Counted from the stretch's first letter, positions 1-43,494 are shown. The stretch: DNA of 64,000 bases from an uncultured Chloroflexia bacterium (GCA_963810095.1 CAWEMM010000013.1:1-64000), one strand, 5' to 3'. Program-made: numbers and translations. Notes: a model not told the origin generated them from the letters alone.

Positions 1-2
1 AG

Positions 3-1667
3 CTAGCGGCGGAGCAAGCCGATGAGGATCAATCCGCTGAGTCCCGCATACCAGGCCCAGCCCGCGCCGGCCGCGTATAGCACCGATGCGGCCAGGATGC
101 CAAACCCAAGCAGAACCGTCGTTTGCAGCCGGCTAATGGAGGTGTCGCGAGGCTTCTGGGCATTAGTTTCGAAGAACTTCAAGCTGTCGCTAAGCAGGAG
201 CGGGCTGCGGCTCATGACGTCGAAAAGCTCGGGCACAAAGAGCAGGCTGGCCTTAAGGGTTGCCACAGGATTGAATTGCTTGAGCAGCAGCGCCTGCACG
301 TGTCCACGTGACGCTTTGACAATGTCGAACTCCGGGTCCAACGCATGCGCCACGCCTTCAATCGTGACCAACGCCTTGATCATGAGAATCATCTCACCCG
401 GATAGTTGATGCGGTATTGGCCTGCCAACAGGATCGCCTGCAGGATGACTCGACCGGTCGACATTCGGCTGAAGCCGGCGGAACGCTGCCAGCGCGCAAA
501 CAGCCCCGCGGCCGCCCGCTGGAAGCTTTCGACGTCGCTGTTTCTCGACGGGGTCGTCAGCGAGATCAAGTAGCGCGCGGCGTTCTCCGCATCGGCCGTG
601 ACCACCGAGAAGAAGAAGTAGAAAAGGCGTTTTCGGATCTCCCGGTCAAAGACCCCGACCATGCCCAGGTCGATGAAGCCCACGCTGCCATCCTTGAAGA
701 TGATCAGGTTGCCAGGATGAAGGTCAGCATGGAAGAAACCGTCGTCGAAGATCATCTGCATGATGGCGCCAACACCCAGCCGCGTGATCCTGTCTTTCTG
801 CTGAGGCGTCAGGATGCGGGCCGCGCGGGCGTCAGGCTTGATGCCTCGGAAGTAGTCCATGCACAGGACGTCGCGATTGCTGAACTCCCGGTAGATCTTC
901 GGGAAACGGATGTCTGGCTGATCCTTGAAGTTCCCTGCAAAGGCCTCGGCGTTATCGGCCTCGAAGCGAAGATCGACCTCGCGCAGCGAATAGCGGCTGA
1001 ATTCGGAGATCAGTCGCCGTGGTTGGTAGCGGGATAGAAACAGCTGCAGCACGACGCCGACCATGCGCAACAGCCTGGTGTCGGTCTCGACGGTCTTGCG
1101 CACGCCCGGTTTCAGAACCTTGAGCACGACTCGTTCGCCGGTGAGCAGGCGGGCGCGGTGCGTTTGAGCCAGGGACGCCGATCCAAGCGGTGTCGGATCG
1201 ATCCAGCGAAAGATCGCATCGGTGGGCCGCTTGAGGTCCGCTTCGATGAGCTCCTTGTAGCGCTCGAAGGTGACGACAGGGAGCCGGTCCAGGAGGTTCT
1301 TGAGTTCGTTGGTGATGGCTTTGGGCAACAGGTCCTCGCGCAAGCTGAGGATCTGGCCGAGCTTGATGTAGGTCGGGCCCAGGCGTTCGAGGCGCAGGCG
1401 GAACTGCACGGGGAAGGTCTGCTGAATGATGCGCGCATCCAGAAACGGGCGCACGAAGAGCAGCAGCATGCGCAAGAGCAACACCCAAAGGGTGGGCCGC
1501 GCGCCGCTTGCGCCCCGTTCCCGGACGTACACGTTGGCACCGCCAAACAGCAGTGCCAGCAACTGAAATGCTGTAACCAGTGCGCGGAGGATCAGGCCGG
1601 CCGGCCGCCGCTCCTGATAGACACTAAACCCGGTGCTCGAAATCGCCGGCGATCCTTGGTTGGGCAC
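3..1667 (-). CDS. ABC1/UbiB (AarF) family atypical protein kinase-like protein
   Basis: ORF has LGPTYIKLGQ, ASLAQ, VLKV, GFFHADLHPGN and DLGMVG motifs plus a C-terminal TM segment; stop at the window edge. Confidence 0.93.
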   Translation of the reverse strand: MPNQGSPAISSTGFSVYQERRPAGLILRALVTAFQLLALLFGGANVYVRERGASGARPTLWVLLLRMLLLFVRPFLDARIIQQTFPVQFRLRLERLGPTYIKLGQILSLREDLLPKAITNELKNLLDRLPVVTFERYKELIEADLKRPTDAIFRWIDPTPLGSASLAQTHRARLLTGERVVLKVLKPGVRKTVETDTRLLRMVGVVLQLFLSRYQPRRLISEFSRYSLREVDLRFEADNAEAFAGNFKDQPDIRFPKIYREFSNRDVLCMDYFRGIKPDARAARILTPQQKDRITRLGVGAIMQMIFDDGFFHADLHPGNLIIFKDGSVGFIDLGMVGVFDREIRKRLFYFFFSVVTADAENAARYLISLTTPSRNSDVESFQRAAAGLFARWQRSAGFSRMSTGRVILQAILLAGQYRINYPGEMILMIKALVTIEGVAHALDPEFDIVKASRGHVQALLLKQFNPVATLKASLLFVPELFDVMSRSPLLLSDSLKFFETNAQKPRDTSISRLQTTVLLGFGILAASVLYAAGAGWAWYAGLSGLILIGLLRR

Positions 1668-1677
1668 TCGGGCCTCT

Positions 1678-2781
1678 CTAGTGCGAAAGCAATGGGACGC
1701 CCGTGCGTTCGCCCGATGTCAGTTGATGCGAGATCGCGCTTTCGAGCCGGCGACTGTAGCGCCGGATCGCGTCGTTGTTGACCAACATCGTCTGCGAATC
1801 GGCGAGACAGCGGGCCATCGTCACCTTCGAAATCTTCACCGCATGCTCAGCGGTGAAAAGCGACTCGCGGCGCTGTGCGGCCAGATGCAAGGTCTGGTAG
1901 GCAGGCAAGAGACACAGGAGCGAAGCACGGCGATATCCGGCGGCATGGTAGGGCAGCGCGAGCACGTACTCCGTGGCCTCGCGGAGCTCAGTCAGCACAT
2001 CGCCTAGCACCATCGCCGTCCAATCGGGCGGCGCGCCCAACAACGATAGCGGCTGGTACGCCGCCTTGCTCAACCAGCTATCGGGCAGGTAGCAGATTCC
2101 CCGTTCCAGGTCTTTGGCGAAGTCCTTGATGATGTTCGTCTTCTGCAGGCTGCGTCCGCAGGCCTCAGCACGCAGGCTTAGCACCTCGGCCACATCTTCC
2201 GTCAGCCCATACTGCCTGACGATCAGCTCGGACGCCAGGCTGCCGACGGTGCCGGCCACGTAATAGCAGTAGCTCTCGTAATCGCTCGCCTCTTGCAGGA
2301 TGTCCACGCCGCCTCGCCGGACCAAACGCGGCCCGCGCTCCGGGTCGCCCAGCTGCCGCATGCCTTGCGCCATCAGGCCGGTCCAGCGGCAAACAATGTC
2401 TCGGGCGTGTGTGGGGATCTGCGCATAAATGCGCCACAGCATGAGGCCGTCGTGGTCACCCATCAGCGCCGCTTCGCGCTCGGTCAAGCCCGGCCAGGGT
2501 TCGAGGCTCCAGCGGTGCAGGACTTCGGCCGCCGGTCCGGGGTCACTCAATAGGTCCACAAACTCGGTAAAGCGCTCATTCTTCCATGCGACCGGCCGCG
2601 TGCAATCTTCGATGTTATCGACCACCCGGCAAAGCAGGTACGCCGTCGCGAGATAGTGCCGCGCCGGAAGCTCGACGCAAGGCACCACCATGGCAAACGT
2701 GCGGGAAACGTGATCTAGCTGATGTTGAAGGTAATCGCTCTCGCCCGAGGTCAGCTCGGATAGGTCGTGCTCAGGGAGCAT
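1678..2781 (-). CDS. Squalene/phytoene synthase family protein (farnesyl-diphosphate farnesyltransferase-like)
   Basis: VSRTF, YLLCRVVDNIED, YCYYVAGTVG and LQKTNIIKDFAKD head-to-head prenyltransferase motifs. Confidence 0.9.
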   Translation of the reverse strand: MLPEHDLSELTSGESDYLQHQLDHVSRTFAMVVPCVELPARHYLATAYLLCRVVDNIEDCTRPVAWKNERFTEFVDLLSDPGPAAEVLHRWSLEPWPGLTEREAALMGDHDGLMLWRIYAQIPTHARDIVCRWTGLMAQGMRQLGDPERGPRLVRRGGVDILQEASDYESYCYYVAGTVGSLASELIVRQYGLTEDVAEVLSLRAEACGRSLQKTNIIKDFAKDLERGICYLPDSWLSKAAYQPLSLLGAPPDWTAMVLGDVLTELREATEYVLALPYHAAGYRRASLLCLLPAYQTLHLAAQRRESLFTAEHAVKISKVTMARCLADSQTMLVNNDAIRRYSRRLESAISHQLTSGERTGVPLLSH

Positions 2782-2810
2782 GGAACACTCCTGGTCCTAA
2801 AGTCGCCACG

Positions 2811-4073
2811 TCAGGGCTGTGCCACCGGTGGCTCATCCCAGGTATGCACGACGCGCGTCCTTGCCAGTTTGTCATGCCATCCTTGGCGCTGACGGTCGCC
2901 CAGTACCCAAAAGAATCCCAGAAATAGCGGAAGTGCTGACAGAAAATAGCCAACGTAGCGCAAGGCGCCGCGCGGCCAGGCGATCTTCGCGGTATCATCA
3001 TGAACCACGCGAAGACCCATGAGCATTTTGCCCGGCGTAGCGCCGGCCAGGCGCCAGAAGACGACAAAGTACAGGGGGATAAAGAGCAGCTCGACCGCAA
3101 CGGTAAGGGCAAGCGTCAGCGTGCGAAAGAGCTGTACAAGCTCGCCCGAGGAGTCGGCCCTGATTTCCTGCACCCCGAGGTGGAAGAAATTCAACACCAG
3201 CGCAATAACGCCGCCGAGCACGACGCTGCCCAACGTGACGATCAGTACATCGCACAGAAAGGCCAGCGTCCGGCTGACGAACCCGGCGGGACGCGCCTGG
3301 CCTGCGGGACTTAGCAGCCGGCCGCCAACCAGAATGGGGGCGGTTGCTACCGAAGCACTTGCGGCGGACCCGCGGCCGAAGATGTGTGCAGCGCGTGCGT
3401 CGCCTGCTGCAGCCGCGCTCCGCAGCGCGGTTATCAGGTCGCCGGCCATGCTCACGCCCTGTTCGGCCACCAGATCACGGACGGCCGGCTCTTCTGCCAA
3501 CATGCCGACGGCGACCTGAATGACTTCCGTGCTGCCGTCCCCGTAAGCCTGGCGCGCCACGGCCCGGCTGCGCTGCTCGGCAGCGCGTCCCGCGTCGATC
3601 AGCCGGTCAAGCCGTGCTTCGCCGCGGGTGGCGAGGCCCTCGTATCGCCGCGCGATCGGTCGCGCGAGGCGGCTCCCGGTGAGCGGGGCCAGCACGCCGG
3701 AGAGCAGGCCATACGCTTGCGCCGAAGCCGCCCTCCCGGTCGATAGCGCGCGGCCCGCTGCCGCCGCGCCGACCGCGGCCAGGCCGACCGCAGCGTAACG
3801 AATGCGCTTGCTCCGGCTCTCGTCAGGACCCTCGTGATAGCGCCCGCGGCCGATGCGCTCCGCTTCCGCATCCCAGGTCTTCACCCGGTCCACGACGATA
3901 TCGCCGCCCTCGGCTGCTCCGCCGACAAGGAGGCGCGCCAGGCTGCGCAGCAGCGACGGGTCCGCACCGCGCGATTCGAGTGTAACGCGCACGACGGCCG
4001 GCGGGAGCTCGACCTCCGGGCCCCAGTCTTCCTCGTCGTCGCCGAAATCTTCGTCCTGTTGCGCGCCAACCAT
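2811..4073 (-). CDS. RDD family membrane protein with long N-terminal helical extension
   Basis: C-terminal AGFVSRTLAFLCD...TPGKMLMGLRVV...RQGWHDKLARTRVV RDD signature. Confidence 0.85.
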   Translation of the reverse strand: MVGAQQDEDFGDDEEDWGPEVELPPAVVRVTLESRGADPSLLRSLARLLVGGAAEGGDIVVDRVKTWDAEAERIGRGRYHEGPDESRSKRIRYAAVGLAAVGAAAAGRALSTGRAASAQAYGLLSGVLAPLTGSRLARPIARRYEGLATRGEARLDRLIDAGRAAEQRSRAVARQAYGDGSTEVIQVAVGMLAEEPAVRDLVAEQGVSMAGDLITALRSAAAAGDARAAHIFGRGSAASASVATAPILVGGRLLSPAGQARPAGFVSRTLAFLCDVLIVTLGSVVLGGVIALVLNFFHLGVQEIRADSSGELVQLFRTLTLALTVAVELLFIPLYFVVFWRLAGATPGKMLMGLRVVHDDTAKIAWPRGALRYVGYFLSALPLFLGFFWVLGDRQRQGWHDKLARTRVVHTWDEPPVAQP

Positions 4074-4075
4074 GG

Positions 4076-4438
4076 CTATGCGTCTTCCGCAGGGCCCTTG
4101 CTCAGATTCTCAATCTGGGCCGACAGGGCGTCCAGCCGCGCGTTCAGGGCCTGGACGTCGGCCTTCGACGCCAGGGCGGCCGCGCGCATGGCAAGAATGG
4201 GGCGCGGCCGGCGCAGGCGCGGACGGCGGACTCCGCCCAGGACTGCGCGGGCTTTGTCCCAATCCGTCTCGCCGCGCGCCACCAGGTGGCGGAGCAGATT
4301 CTCAGCGGCCTCTTCCGCCAGGCTGACGGCGCCGATCGAGGCGAGCGCCAGCTTGGTCAACGCGCCTTCCACCTGTGACTCATCCTGAGGCGCCCCAGCC
4401 TGGGCCGGCGTCGTAAGCATTTCTGGTTCGATTGCCAT
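4076..4438 (-). CDS. Phasin (PhaF/PhaI)-like granule-associated small protein
   Basis: LALASIGAVSLAEE...LVARGE N-terminus and ASKADVQALNARLDALSAQIENL coiled-coil tail; GGAG RBS upstream. Confidence 0.65.
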   Translation of the reverse strand: MAIEPEMLTTPAQAGAPQDESQVEGALTKLALASIGAVSLAEEAAENLLRHLVARGETDWDKARAVLGGVRRPRLRRPRPILAMRAAALASKADVQALNARLDALSAQIENLSKGPAEDA

Positions 4439-4717
4439 GGTTTATCTCCCTTCGCGGAGGTGTGGTCGCTGTGTCAGGCTTGTTTGATGCCTAGTTCGAT
4501 ATTTGTACCCTACAAGGCTAACACACTCCTATCTGTCATGCAATGGTACGATTGGGCAGTCATGAACTGTGCAAACGACTATGATTCTGTCTGGGGAACG
4601 GCAGGGGAAAGCAGCTGGATGCGAGTGCAGTCGCCGCTCATCACGATGGTCGCAAAACAAAGCGAGGTCGGCCACGCCGACTACTCGGGTGGGCAACCTC
4701 GTTGCAGGGCATGGACC

Positions 4718-5497
4718 TCAAATCAGCGGCCAGGGATAGGGCCGTCGATCTTCGGGCGGATCAGGGAAGCAGCCGGCCGCGACAAGGGCCTCGGCTCGAT
4801 GAGCGGTCGCGCGGATTTCGCCGTCGAAGAGTAACTCCTTGAGCTGGACCGAAGTGTCCGCGTCCGGGGTCACCAGCTCTTCGTGCAGCCGTTCGAGGTC
4901 GGCGAGCAGGTCGGCAGGAATGGGCTGCGACGCGTAGTCCCAGATCACCGTGCGCAGCTTGGTTTCCACGTGGAAGCACAGGCCCTGGTCGATTGCAACG
5001 ATGCAGGAGTCACCTACGCGGAGGCAGTGACCGCCCTTGCGGTCGGCGTTGTTCGTGATGATGTCGAACAGCGTCAGGGCCTGCAGGCTGTGCTTGAAGG
5101 CAGGATCTTCGCGGAAGGTGAAGAAGTGCTCGTCCTGGTCGCACTCGACATAAAGCTGAACCGAGCCTCGGCCGTGCGGCCCGCCGCGGAGAACGGTCGG
5201 AGGCACAAGCTCCCAGCCGAGCGTGCGGCAGATGACATACGCGGCGACCTCGCGCTTGGCAAGGGTGCCCCGGGGAAAATCCCAGAGCGGCCGCTCGCCG
5301 CGGATCGGTTTGTAGACCACCTGCGCGCTGTCCCCCGACGCGTTGGTCACCGTGCCGAGAAACGTATAGTTAGAGCTCCAGGGCATCAAGCCCCCCAGCT
5401 CGAGCTCGCCTTTGCCAAGCAGCGTCAGCAGGCGGTCGTTCTCCGTTCCGCCGGTCGCCCAAGGCACGATGCAGTCAGTGCGTTGTCTGCGTGCCAT
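4718..5497 (-). CDS. SCO1664 family PI3/PI4-kinase-like protein
   Basis: SNYTFL, VYKPIRGERPLWDFP, REVAAY, NNADRKGGH and IDQG motifs. Confidence 0.88.
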   Translation of the reverse strand: MARRQRTDCIVPWATGGTENDRLLTLLGKGELELGGLMPWSSNYTFLGTVTNASGDSAQVVYKPIRGERPLWDFPRGTLAKREVAAYVICRTLGWELVPPTVLRGGPHGRGSVQLYVECDQDEHFFTFREDPAFKHSLQALTLFDIITNNADRKGGHCLRVGDSCIVAIDQGLCFHVETKLRTVIWDYASQPIPADLLADLERLHEELVTPDADTSVQLKELLFDGEIRATAHRAEALVAAGCFPDPPEDRRPYPWPLI

Positions 5498-5499
5498 CT

Positions 5500-6108
5500 T
5501 TAGTGCATGATCTCTCCCCCGCGGCGGTTCCGTGCGTTGGCGGGCGGGCAGAAATGCCCGAAGTCGTCCATGGGCGTGTCACAGCGCGGGCACAGCGGAC
5601 GACCGGCAACCACGGCCTTGGCGGCCTGTTCACCCAGCAGCTTTGCCTGGCCTCGCGTCGTGTAAATCTGATGCTCAGGAGGATCCTGATCGTCGTCGTC
5701 GTTGATCAGATCTTCTTCCTCCTCGCCTTCCAGCTTATCGGCATCTACCAGCGTAAAGACCACCAGGTCGTGTAAGCGATCGTAGGCGACGCCAATGCTG
5801 CCCACCCGGAACAGGGGTTGCAGTGGCTCCGCCAGGTTGAGGTTGGGCGCCGCCGCCACCAGCGGCTCGTCCAACTCGGGAAACTCTACGCGTACGTCGT
5901 CCAGCAACTCGGGGATGGCCTTGCTCAGCGCCATCGCCTGGTCCTTTTCGATGACCCAACTGAACGGCTCGGGGCCAAAGAAGGCCTGGAGCACAAAGGT
6001 GCGCCGGCCCATTGCGCCGACTGCACCCGCCGTGATCCGGGTGACTGGATACACGTCATCGCCCTCGTAATAAGGTAGTGCGGCGTAGGATGGGAGGGAA
6101 TCTGTCAT
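5500..6108 (-). CDS. DUF3090 family protein
   Basis: GAVGAMGRRTFVLQA, IEKDQ, FRVGSIG and C-terminal AGRPLCPRC...GHFCP; canonical neighbour of SCO1664; start uncertain (6108 or 6126). Confidence 0.82.
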   Translation of the reverse strand: MTDSLPSYAALPYYEGDDVYPVTRITAGAVGAMGRRTFVLQAFFGPEPFSWVIEKDQAMALSKAIPELLDDVRVEFPELDEPLVAAAPNLNLAEPLQPLFRVGSIGVAYDRLHDLVVFTLVDADKLEGEEEEDLINDDDDQDPPEHQIYTTRGQAKLLGEQAAKAVVAGRPLCPRCDTPMDDFGHFCPPANARNRRGGEIMH

Positions 6109-7078
6109 ATACATAAATGTTACCATAAATCCAGAAAACGCAAGCCTTTGGCGTGTGTGTCGAGAACGTGTCGCGGCTCGGACTCAGCCTCCGGTTGCCT
6201 GCATCTTTCCTTCGTCGGCGACCTGTAAGGCTTCCGGCTCCGGGCCGTGCGCCGTGCGGGTGCCCCGGTTCGGGCGCTCTGCTCACCTGCTCCTCCAGCG
6301 CCCCCTTCGCGGCAGGGCTCTCCTCCGCCTCAGACGGGGCGTCGGCCGCTGGTGTTTCGCTTGCCGGCGGCACATGCGCTGCGTCGTTCATCCGTACCAG
6401 CCGCACCCGTAACGGGCTAAAGTCGAGCTCCGTGATCGACGCGGGGGAAATCTCGAGCCGCTGAAACAGGTCGAGCGGCATGCCCATGTAGAACGCGACC
6501 GCCAGCTTGATGGGGTCGCTGTGCGAAAAGACGGCGATGGTCTGCTCGGCATGTTGCTTCTGCAAGGCGTCCAGCGCCGCAACGATACGGGTTTGGATCT
6601 CCAGCATGCTCTCGCCGTTCGGAAAGCGGAACCCCGAAGGGAAGATCTGTACCTGGGTCCATGCCTCCTGCTTGCGGAGCTCATCCAGCGCCTGGCCGGT
6701 CCAGTCGCCGCAGTCTGTCTCTTTGACGCCTTCCAACGTGCGGAGTTCCAGGCTGAGGCGGGCGGCAAGTGGTGCAGCCGTTTCCTGGCAGCGCTCGAGC
6801 GGGCTGCTATAGACGGCGGCGATTGTCTCGCCAGCCAGCCGTTCGGCGACGGCCGCGGCCTGCGCTTGCCCATCCTTGTTCAGCGATACGCCCGGGGTGC
6901 GACCGGCGAGCAAGCCCTTCTTTACATAGTCGTTGACGCCGTGGCGGATCAGGAGGATACGGGTGGGCTTGGGCGCGGGCTTGGCCGCGGTCTCCCCACC
7001 AGGTTGCGGCGCTGCCGGCGTCTCAACTGCCGAGGCAGCCGTCTGCCCGTTCGAGCCTTCGTTCGCGATCAAGTTCAT
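6056..7078 (-). CDS. Histidine phosphatase (MSMEG_4193-like putative phosphomutase)
   Basis: LIRHG, YSSPLERCQETA and SHSDPIK motifs; ATGA overlap with upstream gene; true 3' end probably near 6280 (tail runs into next gene, possible indel). Confidence 0.85.
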   Translation of the reverse strand: MNLIANEGSNGQTAASAVETPAAPQPGGETAAKPAPKPTRILLIRHGVNDYVKKGLLAGRTPGVSLNKDGQAQAAAVAERLAGETIAAVYSSPLERCQETAAPLAARLSLELRTLEGVKETDCGDWTGQALDELRKQEAWTQVQIFPSGFRFPNGESMLEIQTRIVAALDALQKQHAEQTIAVFSHSDPIKLAVAFYMGMPLDLFQRLEISPASITELDFSPLRVRLVRMNDAAHVPPASETPAADAPSEAEESPAAKGALEEQVSRAPEPGHPHGARPGAGSLTGRRRRKDAGNRRLSPSRDTFSTHTPKACVFWIYGNIYVYDRFPPILRRTTLLRGR

Positions 7079-8097
7079 TCTCCCCTCACCGCTTCGTTCG
7101 TCTCGTCGCCCAACTCGCTCAGCGACCCGTCTTCCCATTCAAAGGTCTGGTTGACCCAATCCGGCACCCGATCGCCGCCCGAAACCAGCACCCGGGAGGC
7201 CTCGCCCACGCGGTTCATCAGCCCCTGCACCGCCTGTTGAAAAGCCGACGGTGCGCGCTGCTCGAGCATGGCCGCCGCATCCTCGGGTTCCAGCTTTTGC
7301 CCCAGGCGGCGGTACGCATCGAAGATATAATCCCATATCCACACGTACAGGTCGGCGGCGGTGCGCTCGGGGAAGCGCTGCAACAGCTGGCGGTCACGAA
7401 TCGCCTGGATGATCGGGCAATAGCTCTTCTCATACCAGTCGAGCGCCGCATCTCCGAGGCTAATCTCACCCGCCGACTCACCCCCCCGGTCCTGGGATAG
7501 TAAACGCCTGTGGATATGGACGTGTTCCAGAAGCTTAACGAAACCGCCCGGGCGGGTGAAGTAGATGTCGACGAACGAAACCCGCTCATTCAGCCGGGTC
7601 TCGGCCAGAAATCGGGCGTGCTCGGCCTTCATGATGGCCTGGTCCAGCGAGTCTCCCGGCTCCAGATCGCAGTCGGCCGCGATATCGGTTACATGCGCTT
7701 CGATGCTGTCGAAGCCGCAGGCGCGCGCGACGCTTACCCGGTGGTTGCCGTCTCCGACGAAATAGACCCCGCCAATCCTAAATACCTCGATTGGAGGCGT
7801 TCCCTCGAGGCTCTCCATCGCTTGCTCGACCCGCGCCCAGCGGTCGGCCATGGACGTGCTCTTGGGCAGGAAGTCACGCGTGAAGTCTCGATAGCGCCCC
7901 ACCGAGCCCGCGATCTTGTCCAGTGGGATCATCTCGGCCTGGCGATGGGGTACCTGCTCGTGGCTCTTGAGGATGGCCGTGAGCACCTCGAACGGCAGCA
8001 GCGACGTAGGCTTGCCGCTGAGGCGGGCCAGCATCTCCTCGCGCCGGGCCCGATTGTGAGCTCGGAAGAAACTCTCTCGCTTGTCGTACAGAGTCAT
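7075..8097 (-). CDS. ParB/Srx-like (DUF4032-associated) domain protein
   Basis: IAGSVGRYRDFTRDFLP, PPIEVF, YFVGDGNHRVSVA and later FPERTAADLYVW. Confidence 0.78.
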   Translation of the reverse strand: MTLYDKRESFFRAHNRARREEMLARLSGKPTSLLPFEVLTAILKSHEQVPHRQAEMIPLDKIAGSVGRYRDFTRDFLPKSTSMADRWARVEQAMESLEGTPPIEVFRIGGVYFVGDGNHRVSVARACGFDSIEAHVTDIAADCDLEPGDSLDQAIMKAEHARFLAETRLNERVSFVDIYFTRPGGFVKLLEHVHIHRRLLSQDRGGESAGEISLGDAALDWYEKSYCPIIQAIRDRQLLQRFPERTAADLYVWIWDYIFDAYRRLGQKLEPEDAAAMLEQRAPSAFQQAVQGLMNRVGEASRVLVSGGDRVPDWVNQTFEWEDGSLSELGDETNEAVRGE

Positions 8098-8169
8098 GTA
8101 TCGTGCCAGACCGCCGTCCAAATGCGTATCGCCCCGGTCGCCTCAGCCAAGAGGACGCCGGCAGACAAC

Positions 8170-8204
8170 AAAAGACCCCGAGGAAACCACTTCCCCGGGG
8201 CTTT
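8170..8204 (-). terminator. Hairpin just 3' of tRNA-Glu (probable intrinsic terminator)
   Basis: AAAGaCCCCG...CGGGGCTTT inverted repeat followed by a U-run on the minus strand. Confidence 0.6.
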
Positions 8205-8209
8205 GTGCG

Positions 8210-8285
8210 TGGTAGCGGATACGGGATTCGAACCCGTGTCTCCGCCTTGAGAGGGCGATATCCTGGGCCCCTAGACGAATCCGCC
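8210..8285 (-). tRNA. tRNA-Glu (anticodon CTC)
   Basis: Reverse complement GGCGGATTCGTCTAGGGGCCCAGGATATCGCCCTCTCAAGGCGGAGACACGGGTTCGAATCCCGTATCCGCTACCA; 76 nt cloverleaf with encoded CCA. Confidence 0.97.
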
Positions 8286-8298
8286 ACGAACGAACCGC

Positions 8299-8327
8299 AT
8301 TATATCGGTTTGGAGGATGGGTGTCAA
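8299..8327 (-). promoter_or_regulatory. Consensus sigma70-type promoter for tRNA-Glu
   Basis: Minus strand TTGACA-N17-TATAAT, a perfect match. Confidence 0.9.
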
Positions 8328-8357
8328 AAACGAAGGGGTGTTCTTCCCAGAAGACAG

Positions 8358-8452
8358 AATGGGACGCAGACCTAACTGATTGGATTGATCTTCATGGTCA
8401 TTCAGCATGAGATCACGTAGATCGGTCGAATCAGTTGAATCTGCGTCCCGTT
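8358..8452. repeat. Family A palindromic element (9-nt GAT period), copy 1
   Basis: GGGACGCAGA...TCTGCGTCCC arms with ACTGAT/ATTGAT units. Confidence 0.8.
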
Positions 8453-8467
8453 AGGTTCCGGTTACCT

Positions 8468-9256
8468 CTAGAGCTTTACGGCGTTGAAGCAGAACTCGGC
8501 CAGGCCCGTCTGTTCGAAGTACTCGATCGTCCAGGTGTGCCAGCCGGGCGCAAGATAGATATCGACGAAGAAGCCCGACGCGGACTGTACCTGCCACGCA
8601 TTTAGGACCTGCACTCCGTCGACGAAGACTCTCGCACCGTCGTCGGACTTGATCGAGACGCGATAGTTGCCGCCGACCGCATTGGACGTGGTGGTCCAGC
8701 GAGCGGAGAAGAAGTCCGCGTTGACGCCGGGGGCCGGCGAGTTGAACCCGCAGTTCCAGCACGGTTTGCGCTCGACCCGCTGGAAGACGACGGGGCCCGA
8801 GAGGTCGGTGGTGTTGAAGTACTGCGCGTTCCATCCGCTCTGGGGCGGCGGAGGCGGCGGGCAGCCGCCGGGCTGGCACGGCCCTGGCAGGGGCGGCGGC
8901 GCGGGCGGCCTCGGTGGCTTGGGCGCCGGATGCGTGCAGTTCCACGGATAGATCACCAACACTTGGCCGATGTAGATCCGATCGGGGTTGGAGATGTGGT
9001 TCCAGCTCATCAGCTGGTTGACGGTCACGCCGAAGCGGTAGGCGATCTTGGTCAGATTATCGCCTGGCACGACGCGGTAGTAGATGGGGCAGCTTGCCGC
9101 ACCCTGGCTTGCGCTCGCCGCGCCGCTCGAGGCTGGGGCAGCCGCCGCCGCCGGCACCATGACGGCGGACAATAAGAGGACCACGACCATGAGGGCGGCA
9201 AGTTGGCGGCGGCCAACTAGCCGGGCGCCGATCTGGCGCTTCGAGCGTTTGGACAT
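8468..9256 (-). CDS. Secreted LysM + PA14 domain protein
   Basis: Signal peptide; LysM YRVVPGDNLTKIAYRFGVTV...IYIGQVL; Pro-rich linker; PA14 WNAQYFN...FSARWT...SDDGARVFVDG...IEYFE. Confidence 0.88.
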   Translation of the reverse strand: MSKRSKRQIGARLVGRRQLAALMVVVLLLSAVMVPAAAAAPASSGAASASQGAASCPIYYRVVPGDNLTKIAYRFGVTVNQLMSWNHISNPDRIYIGQVLVIYPWNCTHPAPKPPRPPAPPPLPGPCQPGGCPPPPPPQSGWNAQYFNTTDLSGPVVFQRVERKPCWNCGFNSPAPGVNADFFSARWTTTSNAVGGNYRVSIKSDDGARVFVDGVQVLNAWQVQSASGFFVDIYLAPGWHTWTIEYFEQTGLAEFCFNAVKL

Positions 9257-16147: not shown

Positions 16148-18262
16148 GTGAATCATCCTTTGCCACCCATTGACCCCGTGAAGCTCTCGGCCCTCATCGA
16201 GGAGCAGGAGCTGACCAAGGCTGATCTGCTGAACTACTTGCGGCAGATGAGCGAGATTCGCGCGCTGGAGGAGCAGATCTCCCGCCTGCTGACCAAGGCC
16301 GTCTTGAAAGGCGCGTCGCACCTCTATGCCGGCGAGGAGGCCGTCGCGGTCGGCGCGGTCGCAGCCCTGCGCGACGACGACCTGATCACTTCCACCCACC
16401 GCGGGCACGGTCACGGCCACGCCCATGGCGACTCGGCCGCAAAGACGGACGAGGAGAAGCAGGCGCACTACAACCGCATGATGGCCGAAGTGCTCGGCAA
16501 GTCGGGCGGCTACTGCAAGGGCAAGGGCGGCTCGATGCACATCGCCGACGTGCAGCACGGCAACCTGGGCGCGACCGGCATCGTGGGCGGGAACCTGCCT
16601 GTGGCGGTCGGCGCGGCGCTGGCGCAGAAGCTCAAGGGCACCGACCGGGTCGTGGTCTGCTTCTTTGGCGACGGCGCCTCGAACGAGGGCAACTTCCACG
16701 AGGCCCTCAACATGGCCTCCGCGTTCACGCTCCCCGTCATCTTCGTCGCGGAGAACAACCAGTACGGCATGTCGGTGCCGTGGGCGAACGTCACCAAGCT
16801 GCCCGACATCGCGGACCGCGCGTGCGCGTACGGCATCCCCGGCGTCGTCGTCGACGGCATGGACGTAGTCCAGGTGCGTGCCGCGGTGGCCGAGGCGGCC
16901 GAGCGGGCGCGCAAGGGTGAGGGTCCCACGCTCATCGAGGCAAAGACGTACCGCTACTTCGGCCACAGCCATTCCGACAACCGCTCGTACCGCACCCGTG
17001 AGGAAGAAGCCGAGTTCAAGGCGCGCGATCCGCTGGAGGTCATCAAGGGCCAGTTGTTCGACCTGAAGCTGGTGCAGAACGGCGAGATCGAGTCGGTGGA
17101 ACAGGGCGTCGAGGCGAAGCTGGCGAAGGCCATGGAGTTCGCCGAAGGGTCGCCCGCACCCGATCCCAGCGAGGTCGAGACCGACGTCTTCGCGCCGCTG
17201 AAGCACACGGCGGCCGACGTCAAGGCCGAGGCGGAGCTGCGCAGCCAGGTCCACCTGGCCGAGAAGGGCCAGGCCGCAGCCGTGCCGATGAAGACCATCT
17301 CCTACGCCGCCGCACTGGTCGAGGCCGCCCGCGAAGAAATGCTGGCCGACCCGAACGTGTTTATCATGGGCGAGGATGTGGGCCTGTACGGCGGCGCATA
17401 CGGCGCCACTCGCGGCCTCTTTGCCGAGTTCGGCGGCGACCGGGTGATCGACACCCCCATCAGCGAGGCCACCATCGGCGGCGCGGCAGTCGGCGCGGCG
17501 ATGGCCGGCATGCGGCCCATCGCCGAAATCATGTACGTCGACTTCACCCCGCTGGCGATGGACCAGATCGCAAACCAGGGCGCGAAGAACCGCTACATGT
17601 TCGGCGGCAAAACCAGCGTCCCGATGGTCTGCCGGACTGAGGGCGGCGCGGGCCGCGCGATCGCCGCGCACCACTCGCAAAGCCTCGAAGCACTCTGGAC
17701 GCACTTCCCCGGCATCTATGTCGTCATGCCATCGACGCCCTACGATGCTAAGGGCCTGCTCAAGGCGGCGATCCGCGACGACAACCCGGTCATGTTCATC
17801 GAGCACAAGATGCTCTACGGCGTAAAGGGCCCGGTGCCCGAAGGGGACTACGTGATCCCGCTTGGCGTCGCCGACATCAAGCGGCCGGGCAAGGACGTCA
17901 CCCTGGTCACCTACTCGCGGATGGTGCACCGCGGCCTCGAGGCCGCCGAAGCCCTGGCGAAGGAAGGGATCGACGTGGAGGTGATCGACCTGCGCTCGCT
18001 CAAGCCGCTGGACCTGGACACCATCATTAACTCCGTCAAGAAGACGGGCCGGCTGGTAGGGCTGACCGAAGCGTACGAAAACACGAGCTTCATCAACGAG
18101 ATCATGGCGCTGGTGAACGAGAACGCGTTTGACTACCTGGACGCGCCGATGGTGCGGGTGGCGGCAGCCAACGTGCCGGTGCCGCGTGCCGAGGTGCTGG
18201 AAGACCTGGCGATCCCGAATGTCGGCCGGATCATGGCCGCGTGCCGGAAGGTGGTGGGCTGA
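16148..18262 (+). CDS. Fused TPP-dependent dehydrogenase E1 alpha+beta (acetoin/2-oxoacid dehydrogenase type)
   Basis: STHRGH, GKGGSMH, GDGASNEG...NN TPP motif and YRYFGHS; beta half GEDVG, DTPISE, HSQS. Confidence 0.92.
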   Translation: MNHPLPPIDPVKLSALIEEQELTKADLLNYLRQMSEIRALEEQISRLLTKAVLKGASHLYAGEEAVAVGAVAALRDDDLITSTHRGHGHGHAHGDSAAKTDEEKQAHYNRMMAEVLGKSGGYCKGKGGSMHIADVQHGNLGATGIVGGNLPVAVGAALAQKLKGTDRVVVCFFGDGASNEGNFHEALNMASAFTLPVIFVAENNQYGMSVPWANVTKLPDIADRACAYGIPGVVVDGMDVVQVRAAVAEAAERARKGEGPTLIEAKTYRYFGHSHSDNRSYRTREEEAEFKARDPLEVIKGQLFDLKLVQNGEIESVEQGVEAKLAKAMEFAEGSPAPDPSEVETDVFAPLKHTAADVKAEAELRSQVHLAEKGQAAAVPMKTISYAAALVEAAREEMLADPNVFIMGEDVGLYGGAYGATRGLFAEFGGDRVIDTPISEATIGGAAVGAAMAGMRPIAEIMYVDFTPLAMDQIANQGAKNRYMFGGKTSVPMVCRTEGGAGRAIAAHHSQSLEALWTHFPGIYVVMPSTPYDAKGLLKAAIRDDNPVMFIEHKMLYGVKGPVPEGDYVIPLGVADIKRPGKDVTLVTYSRMVHRGLEAAEALAKEGIDVEVIDLRSLKPLDLDTIINSVKKTGRLVGLTEAYENTSFINEIMALVNENAFDYLDAPMVRVAAANVPVPRAEVLEDLAIPNVGRIMAACRKVVG

Positions 18263-18263
18263 T

Positions 18264-19651
18264 ATGGCGGTCGAGGTCTATATCCCGAAGTACGGCCAGA
18301 CGGTCGAAGAAGTCAAGATCGTCCAGTGGTTTGTCGAGGACGGCGCGACGGTCAAAAAAGGACAGGAGCTGCTGGAGATCGAGACCGATAAGACGACCTT
18401 CTTTGTCGAGTCCGAGGCGGCCGGCGTGATCCATTGCGGCCCGTACAAGGCGGGCGACACCGTCGCGGTCCTGGAAGTCGTCGCGGTCGTCGGCAAGGCC
18501 GAAGACAAGTTCGTCGCTCACAAGGTGGGCGAGGAACCGGCGGTGGCGGAAGAGACCTTCGGGGTCTCCGAGACCCCGAAGGACTTGTCGGAGCCCTCGG
18601 AGGACTTGTCGGAGACCTCGGAGGTCTTCGTCTCTCCCCGCGCGCGTAAGCTGGCCGAGGCGCGCGGGGTCGACATAAGGCAGATCGCGCCCACGGGCGG
18701 CGGCGGCGTGCGGGTGGCCGAGCGCGACGTGCTCGCGTACCTGGCGTCTGCGCCCAAGGCCACGCCTCTCGCCGAGAAGTTGGCCGCGGAAACCGGCGTC
18801 AACCTGCGCACCGTCGCGGGCACCGGTCCCGGCGGCAAGATCACGCGCGAGGATGTGCTGGCCGCGGGGAGCGTCACGCCGCACCTGCGGTGGCGACCGA
18901 GACCCCGAAGGTTGCGGAGGTCGCCCCGCCCGCGGCGCTGCCCGTCGCGGATGTCGCCGAGCGGATCCCGCTCAAGGGCGTGCGCGCGATCATTGCGGAC
19001 CGGATGGGGACGAGCGTCCATACGACCGCCCGCGTCACCTTGGTCAGCGAGGTCGACGCGACCGAGTTTGTGGCCATGCGCGAGCGGCTGAAGGCGAAGG
19101 TGTCGGAAGCCTGGGGCTTCGCGCCGGGGTACAACGATCTGCTCGCGCTCATCGTCGCGAAGGCGCTGCGCAAGTTTCCCTACATGAACGCCCGCCTCGC
19201 GCCCGACGCGGTCGAGCTGATGGCGCACGTCAACATGGGCATGGCGGTCGACACGGAGAAGGGGCTCCTGGTGCCGGTCATTCGTGATGCGGACGCGAAG
19301 TCTCTGCAGGAGTTCGGGTCGACTTTCCGAGCGCTGGTGGACCGGGCGCGCAAGGGCCGCTCCTTGCCCGACGACCTGACCGGCGGCACGTTCACCATCA
19401 CGAATCTCGGCATGTATGACATCGACGCCTTCACGCCCGTGATCAACCTGCCCGAGGCCGCGATCCTGGGCGTGGGGCGCATCACCCCCAAGTGGATGTA
19501 CAAGCCCGAGAGTCCGAGTGCACCCGTGCCGTGCCAGATGCTGACGCTCAGCCTGGTGTTCGATCATCGCCTCGTCGACGGTGCGCCGGCCGCCCGCTTC
19601 CTCCAGTGGATCAAGGGCGTGATCGAAGAGCCGTACCTGATGGTGGCGTAG
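18264..19651 (+). CDS. Dihydrolipoamide acyltransferase E2 (apparent frameshift near 18885)
   Basis: Lipoyl ETDK, two E3-binding repeats (GTGPGGKITREDV), catalytic DHRLVDG in the second frame. Confidence 0.9.
18552..18628 (+). repeat. Family B repeat embedded in frame in the E2 linker
   Basis: GAGACCTTCGGGGTCTCCGAGACCCCGAAGG plus 21-nt tandem derivatives encoding ETFGVSETPKDLSEPSEDLSETSEV. Confidence 0.75.
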
Positions 19652-19852
19652 CGGCCGGCTGCGAGAACGCGAAGACGCCGGCTGGGCTGACGTCTTCGCG
19701 TCGAGTACGAGTTCGCGTTTCGGACGGCTTCGGGTTGTGAAACGGTCGACCCGTAAGCTGGGGAACGGACAGGACGTTCGACGAGGCCGATACTGTCAGT
19801 GATGACTAGGCGGTTCGTCAATAGAAGTGGACGACCGCGGGAGGGGCAGATC

Positions 19853-20963
19853 ATGGCAGATCGAATTCGCGAATTGCAGAAGCTCGGCCAGAGCCTGTGG
19901 CTAGACTTTATCAGCCGCGATGCGCTGCGCTCGGGCGAGCTCGCCAACTATATCGCAGCGTGGCGTCGTGGGCATGACGGCGAATCCGGCGATCTTCGAG
20001 AAAAGCATGGCGGCGGGCACCGCGTATGACGACGACATTCGGACGCTGGCCAACTCAGGGCGTTCCGTCTACGAGATCTACGAGACCCTGGCGTTGGCCG
20101 ACATCGCCGAGGCCGCCGATCTCCTGCGGCCCGTTTACGACCGCACGGGGGGCCTCGACGGCTACCAAAGCATCGAGGTGGCGCCCGGTCTGGCGCACGA
20201 CACGGCCGGGACCGTCGAGGAAGCGAAGCGTTTCTGGCAGGCGCTCGATCGCCCAAACGTCATGATCAAGATCCCGGGTACGATCGAGGGCGTACCGGCT
20301 ATCCGCGCCGCAACCGCGGCCGGCATCAACATCAACGTGACGCTCCTGTTTGCGATCGAAGCGTACGAAAAGGCCGCGCTGGCGTATATCGAAGGGCTCG
20401 AAGAGCGCGTGGCGCAAGGGCTGGACGTCTCGCGGGTCGCCTCAGTCGCCAGTTTCTTCGTCAGCCGCGTCGATACCCTCGTGGACAAGCAACTGAAAGA
20501 TCATCCGCAGGCGGCGCAGTTGCGGGGCAAGGCCGCCATCGCCAATGCCCGGCTGGCGTACGAGCTCTTTGAAAAGCTCTTCTCGGGTCCGCGCTGGGCG
20601 GCGTTGGCCGCGAAGGGCGCGCGTGTCCAGCGGCCGCTGTGGGCCAGCACGAGCACGAAGGACCCGACCTATCCCGACACGATCTACATGGATGCGCTGA
20701 TCGGGCCCCACACCGTCAACACCGCACCACCGCAGACGATCGATGCGTTTGAGGATCACGGCACGGTCGCCCTCACGGTAAACCGGGGTTATGCCGAAGC
20801 TCGGACGGTGATGGCGCAGTTGCAGGCCGCGGGTATCGACATGCAGGCGGTCACCGACCAATTGCTGACGGATGGCGTCCGCTTGTTTGGCGAGGCGTTC
20901 GACCGCCTCGAGGCGGGGTTGGCAAAGAAGGTCGAGGCCCTCCGCGTAACAGCCCGCTCATAG
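19853..20963 (+). CDS. tal: Transaldolase (type 3/actinobacterial size; apparent frameshift near 19958)
   Basis: GQSLWLD, GMTANPAIF, NVMIKIP, NVTLLF, ASFFVSRVD and RPLWASTSTK. Confidence 0.93.
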
Positions 20964-32645: not shown

Positions 32646-33959
32646 ATGGACCGGACAGTTGTAGCCTTGTTTGACGACGTGGATACCGCGCAACGGGCAT
32701 TGGAAGAGTTGCTGAGCAACGGCTTCGATCGTAACGACGTCAGCGTCGTTCGCACCAACGCGAAGGGCGACTACGCGACAGGATCGACGACAGACACCAG
32801 CGCGGCTGACGCCAGCGGCGCAGCCGCGGGTGCGGGCATTGGCGCCGCACTCGGCGGCATCGCCGGCCTGGTGATCGGCCTCGGCGTGCTGGCGATTCCC
32901 GGCCTGGGCCCCGTGATTGCTGCGGGCCCGCTGGCCACGACGCTGGCAGGCGCAGGGATTGGCGCGGCGGCCGGTGGTATCATCGGCGCCCTGACCGATG
33001 TGGGCATTCCCGAGAATGAGGCAGGATACTACGCCGAGGGCATTCGCCGCGGCGGCACCCTCCTGACGGTGCGCGCGAGCGACGACAAAGTAACCCGCGC
33101 GACGCAGATCCTGAACCGCTTCTCGCCCGTGGACATCAACCAGCGGGCGACTGAGTGGCGTTCGTCGGGTTGGAGCGAGTTCGATTCGAATGCCAAGCCC
33201 TACGAATCCGGCACGGGTGCAACGACTGCCAGCGGCAGCTATTCGGGCACGAGCGGCTCCTACGCCGGAAGCGGCGCTGGGATGAGCGGCTCCTATTCGG
33301 GCGCCGGCATGGGCGCTACGGGCAGCGCCTATTCCAGCCGCTTCGAGGATTTCGACAACGACTTCCGCAGCGACTGGCAGCGGCGCTACTCGACTTCTGG
33401 TTACGGCTACGAGCGCTACCAGCCCGCCTATCGCTACGGCTACGAGGCGCGCAATCGCTACGAGGGCCGCAACTGGAACGACGTCGAGTCTGACCTGCGT
33501 TCAGACTGGCAGCGCAACCATCCCGGCGATGCGTGGGAAGACTTCAAAGACTCGGTCAAGACCGGCTGGGAGCGCTTCAAGAGCAACGTGAGTGGCGCAG
33601 CGAGCGACGTGCGCCAAGGTGCACAGGAAACGAGCTACGACGCACAGCGGTCCTTTGACCGCACCACCAGCGACATGAGCCGGAGCTTCGACCGCTACGA
33701 CCGCGACTTCCGGAGCGATTACGACCGGTCATTCCGCTCGAGCGGCTACGGCTACGAGCGGTACCAGCCCGCCTACCAGTACGGTTACGGGCTGGCGACG
33801 GAGAACCGCTACCGGGGGCGGAACTGGAACGATATCGAGGCCGACGCCCGGCGGGACTGGGAAACGCGGCACCCGAGCGACGCGTGGGATGACTTCAAGG
33901 ACGCGGTTCAGCATGCCTGGCAGCGCGTCCGTGCCGACGTCAAAGACGCGGTCGACTGA
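32646..33959 (+). CDS. General-stress (YflT/17M-like) Gly-zipper protein with two C-terminal Trp/Tyr-rich repeats, paralog 1
   Basis: TVVALFD, Gly-zipper AIPGLGPVIAAGP, YAEGIRRGG; 2x YERYQPAY.YGY...W.D.E...R.DW...HP.DAW.DFKD. Confidence 0.8.
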   Translation: MDRTVVALFDDVDTAQRALEELLSNGFDRNDVSVVRTNAKGDYATGSTTDTSAADASGAAAGAGIGAALGGIAGLVIGLGVLAIPGLGPVIAAGPLATTLAGAGIGAAAGGIIGALTDVGIPENEAGYYAEGIRRGGTLLTVRASDDKVTRATQILNRFSPVDINQRATEWRSSGWSEFDSNAKPYESGTGATTASGSYSGTSGSYAGSGAGMSGSYSGAGMGATGSAYSSRFEDFDNDFRSDWQRRYSTSGYGYERYQPAYRYGYEARNRYEGRNWNDVESDLRSDWQRNHPGDAWEDFKDSVKTGWERFKSNVSGAASDVRQGAQETSYDAQRSFDRTTSDMSRSFDRYDRDFRSDYDRSFRSSGYGYERYQPAYQYGYGLATENRYRGRNWNDIEADARRDWETRHPSDAWDDFKDAVQHAWQRVRADVKDAVD

Positions 33960-34131: not shown

Positions 34132-34437
34132 TTAGTGGCCCGGCACGCTGAGCCAGGTTCGTGTCAGGTAGTCGTCCAGTACCCCGACGATCAGAATGCC
34201 AAACCAGAAGAGCGCGACGATAATGACGATCTTGGTGATGGGCCCGCTGTGCCGCACGTTCATGAAGAAGAGCACGACGAGCGCTGCCTTCGCCGCAGCA
34301 AACGCCAGCGCCACCGCCCCGTGCCATGGACCCAACGGGATGAACGACGCGCCAATGGTGCCCAACGTCAGCAGGGCTAACAGAATTGCGACGAATACGT
34401 AAGTTCGGATTGGTGTAATTTCTTCGTGCATCGTCAA
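34132..34437 (-). CDS. ctaF: Cytochrome c oxidase subunit IV
   Basis: Three TM helices, KAALVVLFFMNV, last gene of the cox operon. Confidence 0.85.
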   Translation of the reverse strand: MTMHEEITPIRTYVFVAILLALLTLGTIGASFIPLGPWHGAVALAFAAAKAALVVLFFMNVRHSGPITKIVIIVALFWFGILIVGVLDDYLTRTWLSVPGH

Positions 34438-34441
34438 TCGC

Positions 34442-35095
34442 TCACCGGATCATGTAGAAGAGGCCAAACAGGAACAGCCAGATCACATCGACAAAGTGCC
34501 AGTACAGCCCCATCTGCTCCACCCGCGTATAGCGGGGGCCGAGAAATGAACCCCGGAAGCCGCGGACCGCCACGATCAGCACCAACACGATCCCGATAAT
34601 CATGTGCGCTGCATGCACGCCCGTCATGGCAAAGTAGAGAAAGAAAAACAGCGCCTGCACGTTTGCGTTCGGCGCCCGTGTGTAATCGTAGTTGAACCCC
34701 GGTGCCAGCCCCTCGTGCCAGTGCTGCCAGTACTCGAATCCCTTGATGCCCAGAAACACCATGCCCAGCGCCGCCGTGGCGAGCAGGAAGAACACCAGCA
34801 CCTTGCGCTGCCCCAGCTGCGCACCCCGTACCGCCAACACCATCATCAGGCTGCTGAAGATCAGCACGAACGTGTTGATCGAGCCGGCCACCACGTTTTG
34901 GTGCTGCGCGGCCTCGGCGAACGCCTCAGGATAAATCGTGCGGAAGATCAGGTAGGCCAGGAACATTCCGCCAAAGAACATGACCTCCGTCGCCAGGAAC
35001 ACCCACATCCCCAGCAGATTGGCGGTATGCTGCTGCTCCCACGTCTCAAAATGATGATCGACGTGTCCTGCGCCGCTGTCATAGGGCTTTTCCAC
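34442..35095 (-). CDS. ctaE: Cytochrome c oxidase subunit III
   Basis: GMWVFLATEVMFF, TGVHAAHM and YWHFVD. Confidence 0.93.
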   Translation of the reverse strand: MEKPYDSGAGHVDHHFETWEQQHTANLLGMWVFLATEVMFFGGMFLAYLIFRTIYPEAFAEAAQHQNVVAGSINTFVLIFSSLMMVLAVRGAQLGQRKVLVFFLLATAALGMVFLGIKGFEYWQHWHEGLAPGFNYDYTRAPNANVQALFFFLYFAMTGVHAAHMIIGIVLVLIVAVRGFRGSFLGPRYTRVEQMGLYWHFVDVIWLFLFGLFYMIR

Positions 35096-35106
35096 AACAA
35101 CTCCTT

Positions 35107-36825: not shown

Positions 36826-36874
36826 GATCGCTCCTTAGAATCCGCTCGCCTCACGCCAGGTCACTTACGGTTCG

Positions 36875-37960: not shown

Positions 37961-37963
37961 CGC

Positions 37964-43477: not shown

Positions 43478-43494
43478 TCTAGCTCTACCTTTTC

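Follow-up and report, generated by a model that had tools for sequence, protein, structure and literature searches.

The first part of a 64,000-nucleotide stretch of DNA from an uncultured Chloroflexia bacterium (GCA_963810095.1, CAWEMM010000013.1:1-64000; the whole stretch is referred to here as the window) carries a four-gene operon whose core is a gene pair encoding a squalene synthase (SQS)-type enzyme and an ATPase of the UbiB/ABC1 family. All four genes lie on the minus strand. The outermost is a gene for a small phasin-like coiled-coil protein of 120 amino acids (4076-4438), recognized by open reading frame (ORF) calling and sub-threshold matches to phasin models. It is followed by a 420-amino-acid ORF (2811-4073), which ORF calling, Pfam and the ORFs of relatives resolve into an N-terminal part of ~250 amino acids, here called HEL (3324-4073; delimited by profile search and by separate ORFs in relatives), and an RDD part (2811-3323). 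The third gene (1678-2781) encodes the SQS-type synthase of 367 amino acids, which its PF00494 match, motifs and AF2 fold assign to the head-to-head prenyl-diphosphate synthases as a divergent subfamily, and the last (3-1667) encodes an ABC1/UbiB-family atypical kinase-like ATPase of 554 amino acids (PF03109 and TIGR01982). The intergenic gaps are 2, 29 and 10 nt, and the GC content at third codon positions (GC3) of the four genes, 0.75-0.80, is similar to that of other window genes.

An earlier note on this DNA, made from the sequence alone, had described four tightly spaced, co-oriented genes, and that description holds. The gene identities it gave also stand, with two amendments: the phasin label is sub-threshold, and the gene it called RDD is a fusion. 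A Pfam scan covered 55 of the 61 predicted window ORFs, the other six being short and of low GC3. Among the 55 there is no polyhydroxyalkanoate (PHA) synthase, phytoene desaturase (crtI) or squalene-hopene cyclase, in agreement with the note. A promoter and terminator scan of positions 1-8500 gave no signal within the operon beyond shuffled expectation, and a gap of 279 nt separates the operon from the next co-oriented upstream genes.

A divergent SQS-type synthase

The window synthase matches SQS_PSY (PF00494) with 107.3 bits, and the motifs that the earlier note had quoted are present in the translation, within VVDNIEDC and SLQKTNIIKDFAKD. Of the motifs expected in a squalene synthase, the enzyme has the two Asp-rich ones, the Tyr region YC.YVAG and the LQKTN section, all of which align to their human counterparts. 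A search of a 5.8-billion-protein set, in which 8000 candidates were scored, yielded 3244 synthase relatives, and PF00494 is present in all 120 of those listed; the source names among the listed relatives are either "squalene/phytoene synthase family protein", from metagenome-assembled genomes (MAGs) of Chloroflexota, Anaerolineae and Caldilineaceae, or farnesyl-diphosphate farnesyltransferase. A family alignment of 32 members reveals DNIED, Y171-C172, VAGTVG, LQKTNI, K219-D220-F221, D224 and R227 to be invariant, as are L288, P293, K316 and I317.

Profile and structural comparisons place the enzyme nearest to SQS. When the family profile was compared with the PDB, the T. cruzi and human SQS structures matched over the full length at ~1e-22, while PSY (1e-11) and CrtM (7e-10) matched over partial length only. 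The AF2 model of the synthase has a pLDDT of 92.7 and its closest PDB structures are SQS, with Foldseek TMq values of 0.74-0.75 to the human and T. cruzi enzymes (rmsd 3.0 to 3vj8) versus 0.57-0.60 to CrtM and 5iys. The suggestion in the earlier note that the synthase lies closer to SQS than to CrtB is thus supported, for CrtM as well, by the full-length profile match and the fold model. Compared with the characterized squalene synthases of human, T. cruzi and A. flavus, the window enzyme shares the Pfam family, the fold, the Asp-rich motifs, YC.YVAG and LQKTN, and a stretch of it aligns to VKIRK, whereas it differs in its ~20% identity to the PDB entries, in the lack of a C-terminal membrane anchor (hydropathy reveals no transmembrane segment) and in the operon linkage of its gene to ABC1.

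Against the squalene-synthase equivalog model TIGR01559, the window synthase reaches 75.8 bits where the cut-off is 286.75, and nine of its relatives, three of them cyanobacterial, score between 70.8 and 92.3 bits. Because all ten tested members fall far below the cut-off, orthology to a characterized squalene synthase is not established. The position of human Phe288 is occupied by Leu in all 32 aligned synthases, and this Leu288 aligns with F288 of the wild-type structure 3vj8 and with the mutant Leu of 3wek (F288L). Mutations of Phe288 in human SQS are reported to abolish the second half-reaction (PMC10378455, in its available text), and structure titles in the PDB describe F288L and F288A mutants of SQS with presqualene diphosphate bound. 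Since Phe288 is needed for the second half-reaction, squalene may not be the product. The second Asp-rich motif, D220-F-x-x-D224, also reads DFAKD in the window and DFAED in most relatives. Judged from its low TIGR01559 score, its Leu288 and its lack of a membrane segment, the window enzyme is not securely placed among the squalene synthases.

These observations bring in the possibility that the reaction of the SQS-like enzyme ends with presqualene diphosphate or leads to a different head-to-head product, be it hydroxysqualene, dehydrosqualene or a C35/C40 hydrocarbon, which partners with genes elsewhere would complete or use. Besides the invariant Leu and the low equivalog scores, this possibility draws on three cyanobacterial loci, L032 (11125-13269), L040 (1765-3009) and L064, in which a gene for an FAD-dependent oxidoreductase follows the synthase; the N-terminus alone of this oxidoreductase resembles HpnE or zeta-carotene desaturase. 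Speaking for an SQS-like reaction instead is the stretch VKISK of the window synthase, which aligns to human VKIRK and reads VKIS(K/R) in the family. VKIRK (residues 314-318) is a suggested NADPH site in SQS (PMC10378455), so that the role of the motif is itself only suggested. The sequence and fold also resemble SQS more closely than they do CrtM or PSY, and the models HpnD, at 55.9 bits (cut-off 278.6), and HpnC, at 21.1 (cut-off 250.45), match the window synthase only locally. The match to CrtB, at 37.9 bits (cut-off 480), is local as well. We regard a product other than squalene as possible, though rather improbable.

The phylogenetic standing of the family was approached from its cyanobacterial side. 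A search with the Nostoc synthase gave ~26 clusters at ≥60% identity among the matches listed, and those that carry names are cyanobacterial and are called, generically, squalene/phytoene synthase family protein. Below them, at ~50-56% identity, the matches are mostly unnamed, and the named ones are Chloroflexota together with two more cyanobacterial records. The idea that the family is the ordinary cyanobacterial Sqs was considered and is disfavored by this set of matches; the cyanobacterial members would rather represent a sporadic second family. A literature search found no characterized member of this SQS-like family. Two studies of Sqs evolution (PMC7306690 and PMC9907078) mention Chloroflexi merely in passing in their available text, and their supplementary trees may already include this clade.

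An ABC1/UbiB-family protein with conserved nucleotide-binding motifs

The last gene of the operon encodes a protein with 212.7 bits to ABC1 (PF03109). Its best NCBIfam match, over nearly the full profile, is the UbiB equivalog TIGR01982, at 330.2 bits against a cut-off of 487.55; the score thus lies below that expected of UbiB proper, and the scanned window ORFs include no ubi genes. Across the window protein and 22 orthologues, the motifs IKLGQ, GSASLAQTH, the lysine of K.LKP, EVDL..EA.NA, HADLHPGN and IDLGM are at least 95% conserved, among which are what we take to be the KxGQ motif, the A-rich loop, the catalytic loop and the metal-binding DxG. With its PF03109 domain and these nucleotide-binding and catalytic motifs, the protein belongs to the atypical kinase-like family, and the conservation of the motifs makes an active nucleotide-dependent enzyme likely. 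Hydropathy indicates hydrophobic helices at both the N- and the C-terminal end.

What might such an ATPase do next to a prenyl-diphosphate synthase? In the available accounts, insoluble coenzyme Q (CoQ) intermediates are delivered by the ATPase COQ8, which recognizes them through their head groups and extracts the precursor from membranes (PMC13418538). For UbiB, a membrane-extraction role has been proposed with UbiJ and UbiK as accessory factors, to which a role in ATP-dependent decarboxylation has been added (bioRxiv 10.64898/2026.03.05.709815). The window operon resembles the UbiB-UbiJ-UbiK and COQ8 systems in that the gene for an ABC1 ATPase, which has membrane helices at its two ends and intact motifs, is grouped with genes for an isoprenoid-lipid enzyme and for small helical accessory proteins. 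It differs from UbiB in the sub-cut-off score, in the absence of ubi genes nearby and in a presumed lipid without an aromatic head group. The gene order in E. coli is ubiE-ubiJ-ubiB; no homology of UbiJ to HEL or RDD was detected, no direct comparison having been made. ABC1-family proteins are likewise tied to prenyl-lipid metabolism in plastoglobules and cyanoglobules.

The synthase-ABC1 pair as the conserved core

The arrangement of these genes in relatives was taken from a neighborhood scan of species-representative genomes with the synthase family alignment, which found 74 loci, of which five remote ones (L070-L074) were set aside. The remaining 69 loci come nearly all from MAGs labeled as Chloroflexota (Anaerolineae, Caldilineales, Ardenticatenaceae, Promineifilaceae and "uncultured Chloroflexia"), the exceptions being four loci with cyanobacterial labels and a few with other labels. 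Neighbors were assigned by ORF calling and phmmer with the window proteins, and adjacency was counted in the 62 loci with a downstream flank of at least 600 nt.

The conserved core of the system is the synthase-ABC1 pair. An ABC1 gene lies directly downstream of the synthase and co-oriented with it in 23 of the 62 loci, so that the linkage of the two genes described in the earlier note is found well beyond the window. Clear orthologues of the window ABC1 protein (E<1e-100, phmmer) account for 21 of the 23. The other two (L004 3532-5202 and L011 2464-4137) belong to a different, more UbiB-like subfamily, which scores 442.5 bits against TIGR01982 versus 330.2 for the window protein. Because this second subfamily holds the same position, the pairing of synthase with ABC1 may have arisen independently. 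An ABC1 gene is found elsewhere within the locus in four more loci, and one further locus, L023, in which the start of the ABC1 ORF falls at the contig end, was left out of the count. From the synthase stop to the first possible ABC1 start the median distance is 41 nt (24 pairs). A tree was built of the synthases from 63 loci and the window, the 11 loci whose synthase ORFs are shorter than 300 amino acids being omitted. ABC1-linked synthases group together in it, chiefly within a 22-row clade (SH-aLRT 96), with some elsewhere. The 10-row clade that contains the window mixes ABC1-linked (L003 and L059) and unlinked (L002, L005, L009 and L058) members. Several MAGs carry two synthase copies.

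The remaining 39 of the 62 loci have no ABC1 gene directly downstream, among them L002, L005, L009 and L058, the nearest sampled relatives with full flanks, and the pairing is therefore facultative. This pattern is one of the points that speak for a different explanation, in which the ABC1 protein serves menaquinone biosynthesis or homeostasis and sits beside the synthase through shared isoprenoid metabolism or regulation, the two proteins acting on different lipids. Such an explanation is also consistent with UbiB being the best NCBIfam match of the protein and with the quinol-dependent respiratory chain (Alternative Complex III and cytochrome c oxidase) encoded in the window. Characterized UbiB and COQ8 members, moreover, have prenyl-quinone intermediates as their targets and engage them by the head group, as the available text of two sources has it (PMC13418538; bioRxiv 10.64898/2026.03.05.709815). 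What argues for a shared lipid is that the tight, operon-like spacing is kept over synthases only 43-62% identical to that of the window, and that in L004 and L011 this place is taken by an ABC1 protein of another subfamily. Within the annotated clusters, furthermore, no gene of the ubiE/menG or ubiA/menA type directly flanks the pair, the one UbiA-family gene noted being ~7 kb away (L038). We consider a role confined to quinones unlikely.

The HEL-RDD fusion protein

The RDD part of the 420-amino-acid protein scores 83.2 bits against PF06271 over residues 262-404 (about nucleotides 2862-3290), contains three transmembrane-like segments by hydropathy, is modeled by AF2 with a pLDDT of 80-90 and has the features of the RDD family. 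The first 250 residues have no Pfam or NCBIfam match. The ORF unites two genes that mostly stand apart in relatives: query residues ~7-230 and ~255-415 are matched by separate adjacent ORFs in L003, L059, L008, L055, L024 and L065 (phmmer), and HEL forms a separate ORF of ~240 amino acids in nine loci. By an iterated HMM search, 11 of the 69 loci have HEL as a neighbor of the synthase, in three arrangements: directly upstream in eight, downstream in L024 and L058, and as a contig-edge fragment in L039. An RDD gene stands beside HEL in seven of these 11.

Ten RDD-bearing relatives of 399-439 amino acids probably represent the fused form. In nine, P0121-P0129, with identities down to 54%, the alignment takes in 95-100% of the query, and in the tenth, P0132, it takes in 67%; five of the ten come from contigs equal in size to contigs that bear synthase relatives. 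The HEL profile itself reached 1177 representative clusters at E≤1e-3, of which 277 remain at the stricter E≤1e-30. Of 150 listed HEL matches (P0208-P0356 among them), two have the fused length and most are free-standing proteins of 230-290 amino acids. A Pfam scan of 70 HEL members gave a single match above its gathering score, to RDD in a fused form; the remaining six matches concern one member each at E 0.00035 or weaker, and the window HEL segment has none. The earlier note had treated the long helical N-terminus as a part of the RDD protein, proposed to act as a membrane tether. It instead represents a separate family, mostly free-standing and often without RDD.

Structural comparison gave little to classify HEL by. 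The AF2 model of the fusion has a mean pLDDT of 60.3 and is all-helical and below ~65 in the HEL part, and none of the 20 listed Foldseek matches of the model in the PDB reaches E≤0.001; with a low-confidence model and no Foldseek match, no fold can be assigned to HEL. The HEL profile matched PDB entries at chance level only, the best being a designed helical pore at 0.0071, and an Atlas search returned unnamed clusters only. A prediction of a complex between synthase and HEL gave a score of 0.00 against a mark of 0.32, the predicted fold of HEL itself being uncertain, and speaks neither for nor against an interaction. A relationship of HEL to the phasin-like protein was also considered and is rejected by hhalign (probability 0.8-1.4%). 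Taken from its sequence, then, HEL is a predicted all-helical, presumably cytoplasmic domain from a widespread separate family for which Pfam holds no model. For RDD proteins, the available text of PMC12419801 describes a conserved intramembrane binding site on the cytoplasmic side and notes that RDD is often fused to VanZ, a lipid-modifying domain; literature listings on RDD include a claimed cation antiporter and SppI, the partner of SppA. HEL, with or without RDD, would frequently accompany the synthase-ABC1 pair as an accessory, and the phasin-like protein would do so rarely.

The phasin-like protein and a proposed lipid droplet

The earlier note proposed that the operon makes and packages a neutral C30/C40 hydrocarbon in a cytoplasmic droplet, with the phasin-like protein as its coat, the HEL-RDD protein as its tether and ABC1 acting as in plastoglobules. 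The window phasin-like protein scores 25.6 bits against PF05597, under the gathering score of 28.8, and 28.8 bits against TIGR01837, under the cut-off of 94.7. Its C-terminus resembles PDB coiled coils, the profile search against the PDB gave generic coiled coils only, and hydropathy finds no transmembrane segment. All five members of the phasin-like family match PF05597 at E≤1, and one of them, from L038, is above the gathering score at 41.1 bits. The same relative matches BMFP, presumably the Pfam family of UbiK, with 20.6 bits, below the cut-off of 37.2.

Beyond these matches, the droplet proposal can draw on L038 for a PhaR-like protein with a phasin-like C-terminus (PHB_acc_N 100.8 bits; TIGR01848 93.2 bits, below the cut-off of 109.45). 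Its gene adjoins an ECF sigma factor and was noticed in this one locus, the others not having been searched for PhaR-like genes. No PHA synthase is encoded in the 21 kb of L038, nor in L003 or L059. A further point for a droplet is the lack of a membrane anchor in the synthase, and lipid droplets of the cyanobacterium Synechocystis are reported to carry three of the four ABC1K homologues together with squalene-hopene cyclase (PMC12223511, in its available text). In the window operon and its relatives no fibrillin, PG18 or other marker of droplets was noticed, no search aimed at such markers having been made.

The distribution of the phasin-like gene argues against this proposal. The gene is found in 3 of the 69 loci. 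In L003 and L059 it precedes HEL in the same orientation, and in L038 it lies on the other strand. L003 and L059 are also the only sampled loci in which phasin-like, HEL, RDD, synthase and ABC1 genes all stand together in one orientation. The earlier note had named loss of the synthase from beside the phasin/ABC1 pair in relatives as evidence against its idea, and this has come about in part: the synthase is kept beside ABC1 and not beside the phasin-like gene. In addition, the window protein lies under both the Pfam and the NCBIfam thresholds, HEL has no similarity to phasins, and the recurrent neighbors are stress and membrane proteins, not storage-lipid genes. Compared with PHA-granule proteins (the phasins PhaP and PhaF, and PhaR, with the PhaR/PhaP regulatory circuit as background), the small protein weakly matches both ends of PF05597/TIGR01837 and a related locus has a PhaR-like gene, whereas the scores are sub-threshold, the gene is rare and PHA synthase is absent from the scanned window ORFs and from all three loci that carry the gene. 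A phasin-coated droplet, which depends on the rarest and weakest component of the operon, is thus very unlikely. No description of a phasin/ABC1/squalene-synthase gene combination was found in the literature, subscription journals lying outside the coverage.

Recurrent neighbors and the window context

Genes for DUF1269 membrane proteins lie near the synthase or the pair in 15 loci (for example L008 3620-5303, L028 13077-13961 and L031), sometimes with Hsp20 or DUF308. Other recurrent neighbors are Hsp20, DUF308, Usp, OsmC, an ECF sigma factor, SulP permeases, PPK2, potassium channels and TrkA/TrkH, and LuxR-type response regulators with 7TMR-DISM kinases also recur near the synthase. A possibly associated gene, orf348 (7075-8121, minus strand), has the same orientation as the operon and lies 2.6 kb upstream of it. 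A homologue of orf348 of ~600 amino acids with a C-terminal Usp domain is encoded directly upstream of the synthase-ABC1 pair in L042, L048, L049, L050 and L068. The window orf348 has no Pfam match, and an Atlas feature search gave DUF4032/ParB_N-like features, to be taken as a lead only. In L038, the region ~7 kb downstream of the synthase encodes a UbiA prenyltransferase, a GHMP kinase and a protein of the amino-acid-kinase family, which could serve the supply of isoprenoid precursors; together with the PhaR-like and ECF sigma factor genes of that locus, these genes take up 5520-6771 and 17882-20538.

The co-oriented genes upstream of the operon are those for an SCO1664-family protein, DUF3090 and an MSMEG_4193-type histidine phosphatase, followed by orf348. 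The first three form a conserved trio directly upstream of the operon at 4718-7138 on the minus strand (TIGR03843, TIGR03847 and TIGR03848, respectively), in which the phosphatase ORF as called overlaps both of its neighbors, so that its start and end are uncertain. A tRNA-Glu(CTC) gene follows at 8210-8285 (minus strand), with a 12/12 match to a sigma-70-type promoter before it (8327-8299) and a 12-bp terminator-like hairpin after it (8201-8175).

Farther along the window, a respiratory block at 34132-46335 (minus strand) encodes cytochrome c oxidase subunits I-IV and Alternative Complex III (ActD, an NrfD-like protein and a 4Fe-4S protein), genes that indicate an aerobic, quinol-oxidizing organism. 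Two window proteins, encoded at 57062-57967 and 61858-62772, contain START/polyketide-cyclase-type lipid-binding domains, one with a YtxH-like N-terminus and the other with a YgaP-like membrane helix. Other stress-type genes nearby are YflT (32646-33959) and DUF892 (52022-52654).

Discussion

We tentatively favor a reading, which we judge to have somewhat less than an even chance of being right, in which this Chloroflexota operon, with the synthase and the UbiB/ABC1 ATPase as its core, serves the membrane-associated making and handling of a C30 isoprenoid. In the proposed sequence of events, the synthase would join two molecules of farnesyl diphosphate head-to-head at the membrane surface to give presqualene diphosphate, and from it squalene or a related C30 product. 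The ABC1 protein would use ATP to extract, present or tune the level of this very hydrophobic product or intermediate, much as COQ8 and UbiB do with polyprenyl-quinone intermediates. In the window lineage, HEL fused to RDD and the small phasin-like coiled coil may act as accessory factors. The product would probably modify the membrane under stress rather than be stored.

Several points weigh against this reading. The Leu288 position, the equivalog scores, the altered Asp-rich motif and the facultative pairing have been given above. To these must be added that no squalene-consuming enzyme is encoded among the scanned window ORFs, that a COQ8-style recognition through head groups would not fit a hydrocarbon, and that the link to stress, though probable, is based on the names of the neighboring genes alone.

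A bolder form of the C30 proposal would have the UbiB/ABC1 ATPase dedicated to a non-quinone isoprenoid, working with HEL, RDD and the phasin-like coiled coil. Jointly they would draw a squalene-type hydrocarbon, the product of the divergent synthase with its Leu288, out of the bilayer and chaperone or sequester it, and in some lineages this could extend to a protein-stabilized hydrocarbon body sensed by a PhaR-like regulator. We hold this form to be quite improbable.

As far as is known, Chloroflexota make menaquinone rather than ubiquinone. The synthase-ABC1 operon pairs an ATPase of the UbiB/ABC1 family with a candidate lipid, and it thereby bears on the roles that UbiB/ABC1 proteins may have beyond ubiquinone synthesis. 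Two uncharacterized families are marked out by the locus: HEL, and a large SQS-like clade in which the Leu that naturally stands in place of Phe288 calls the assumed product into question. If the product should prove to be squalene, made where no cyclase is encoded, the operon would be of relevance to the question of why squalene is an end product in bacteria.

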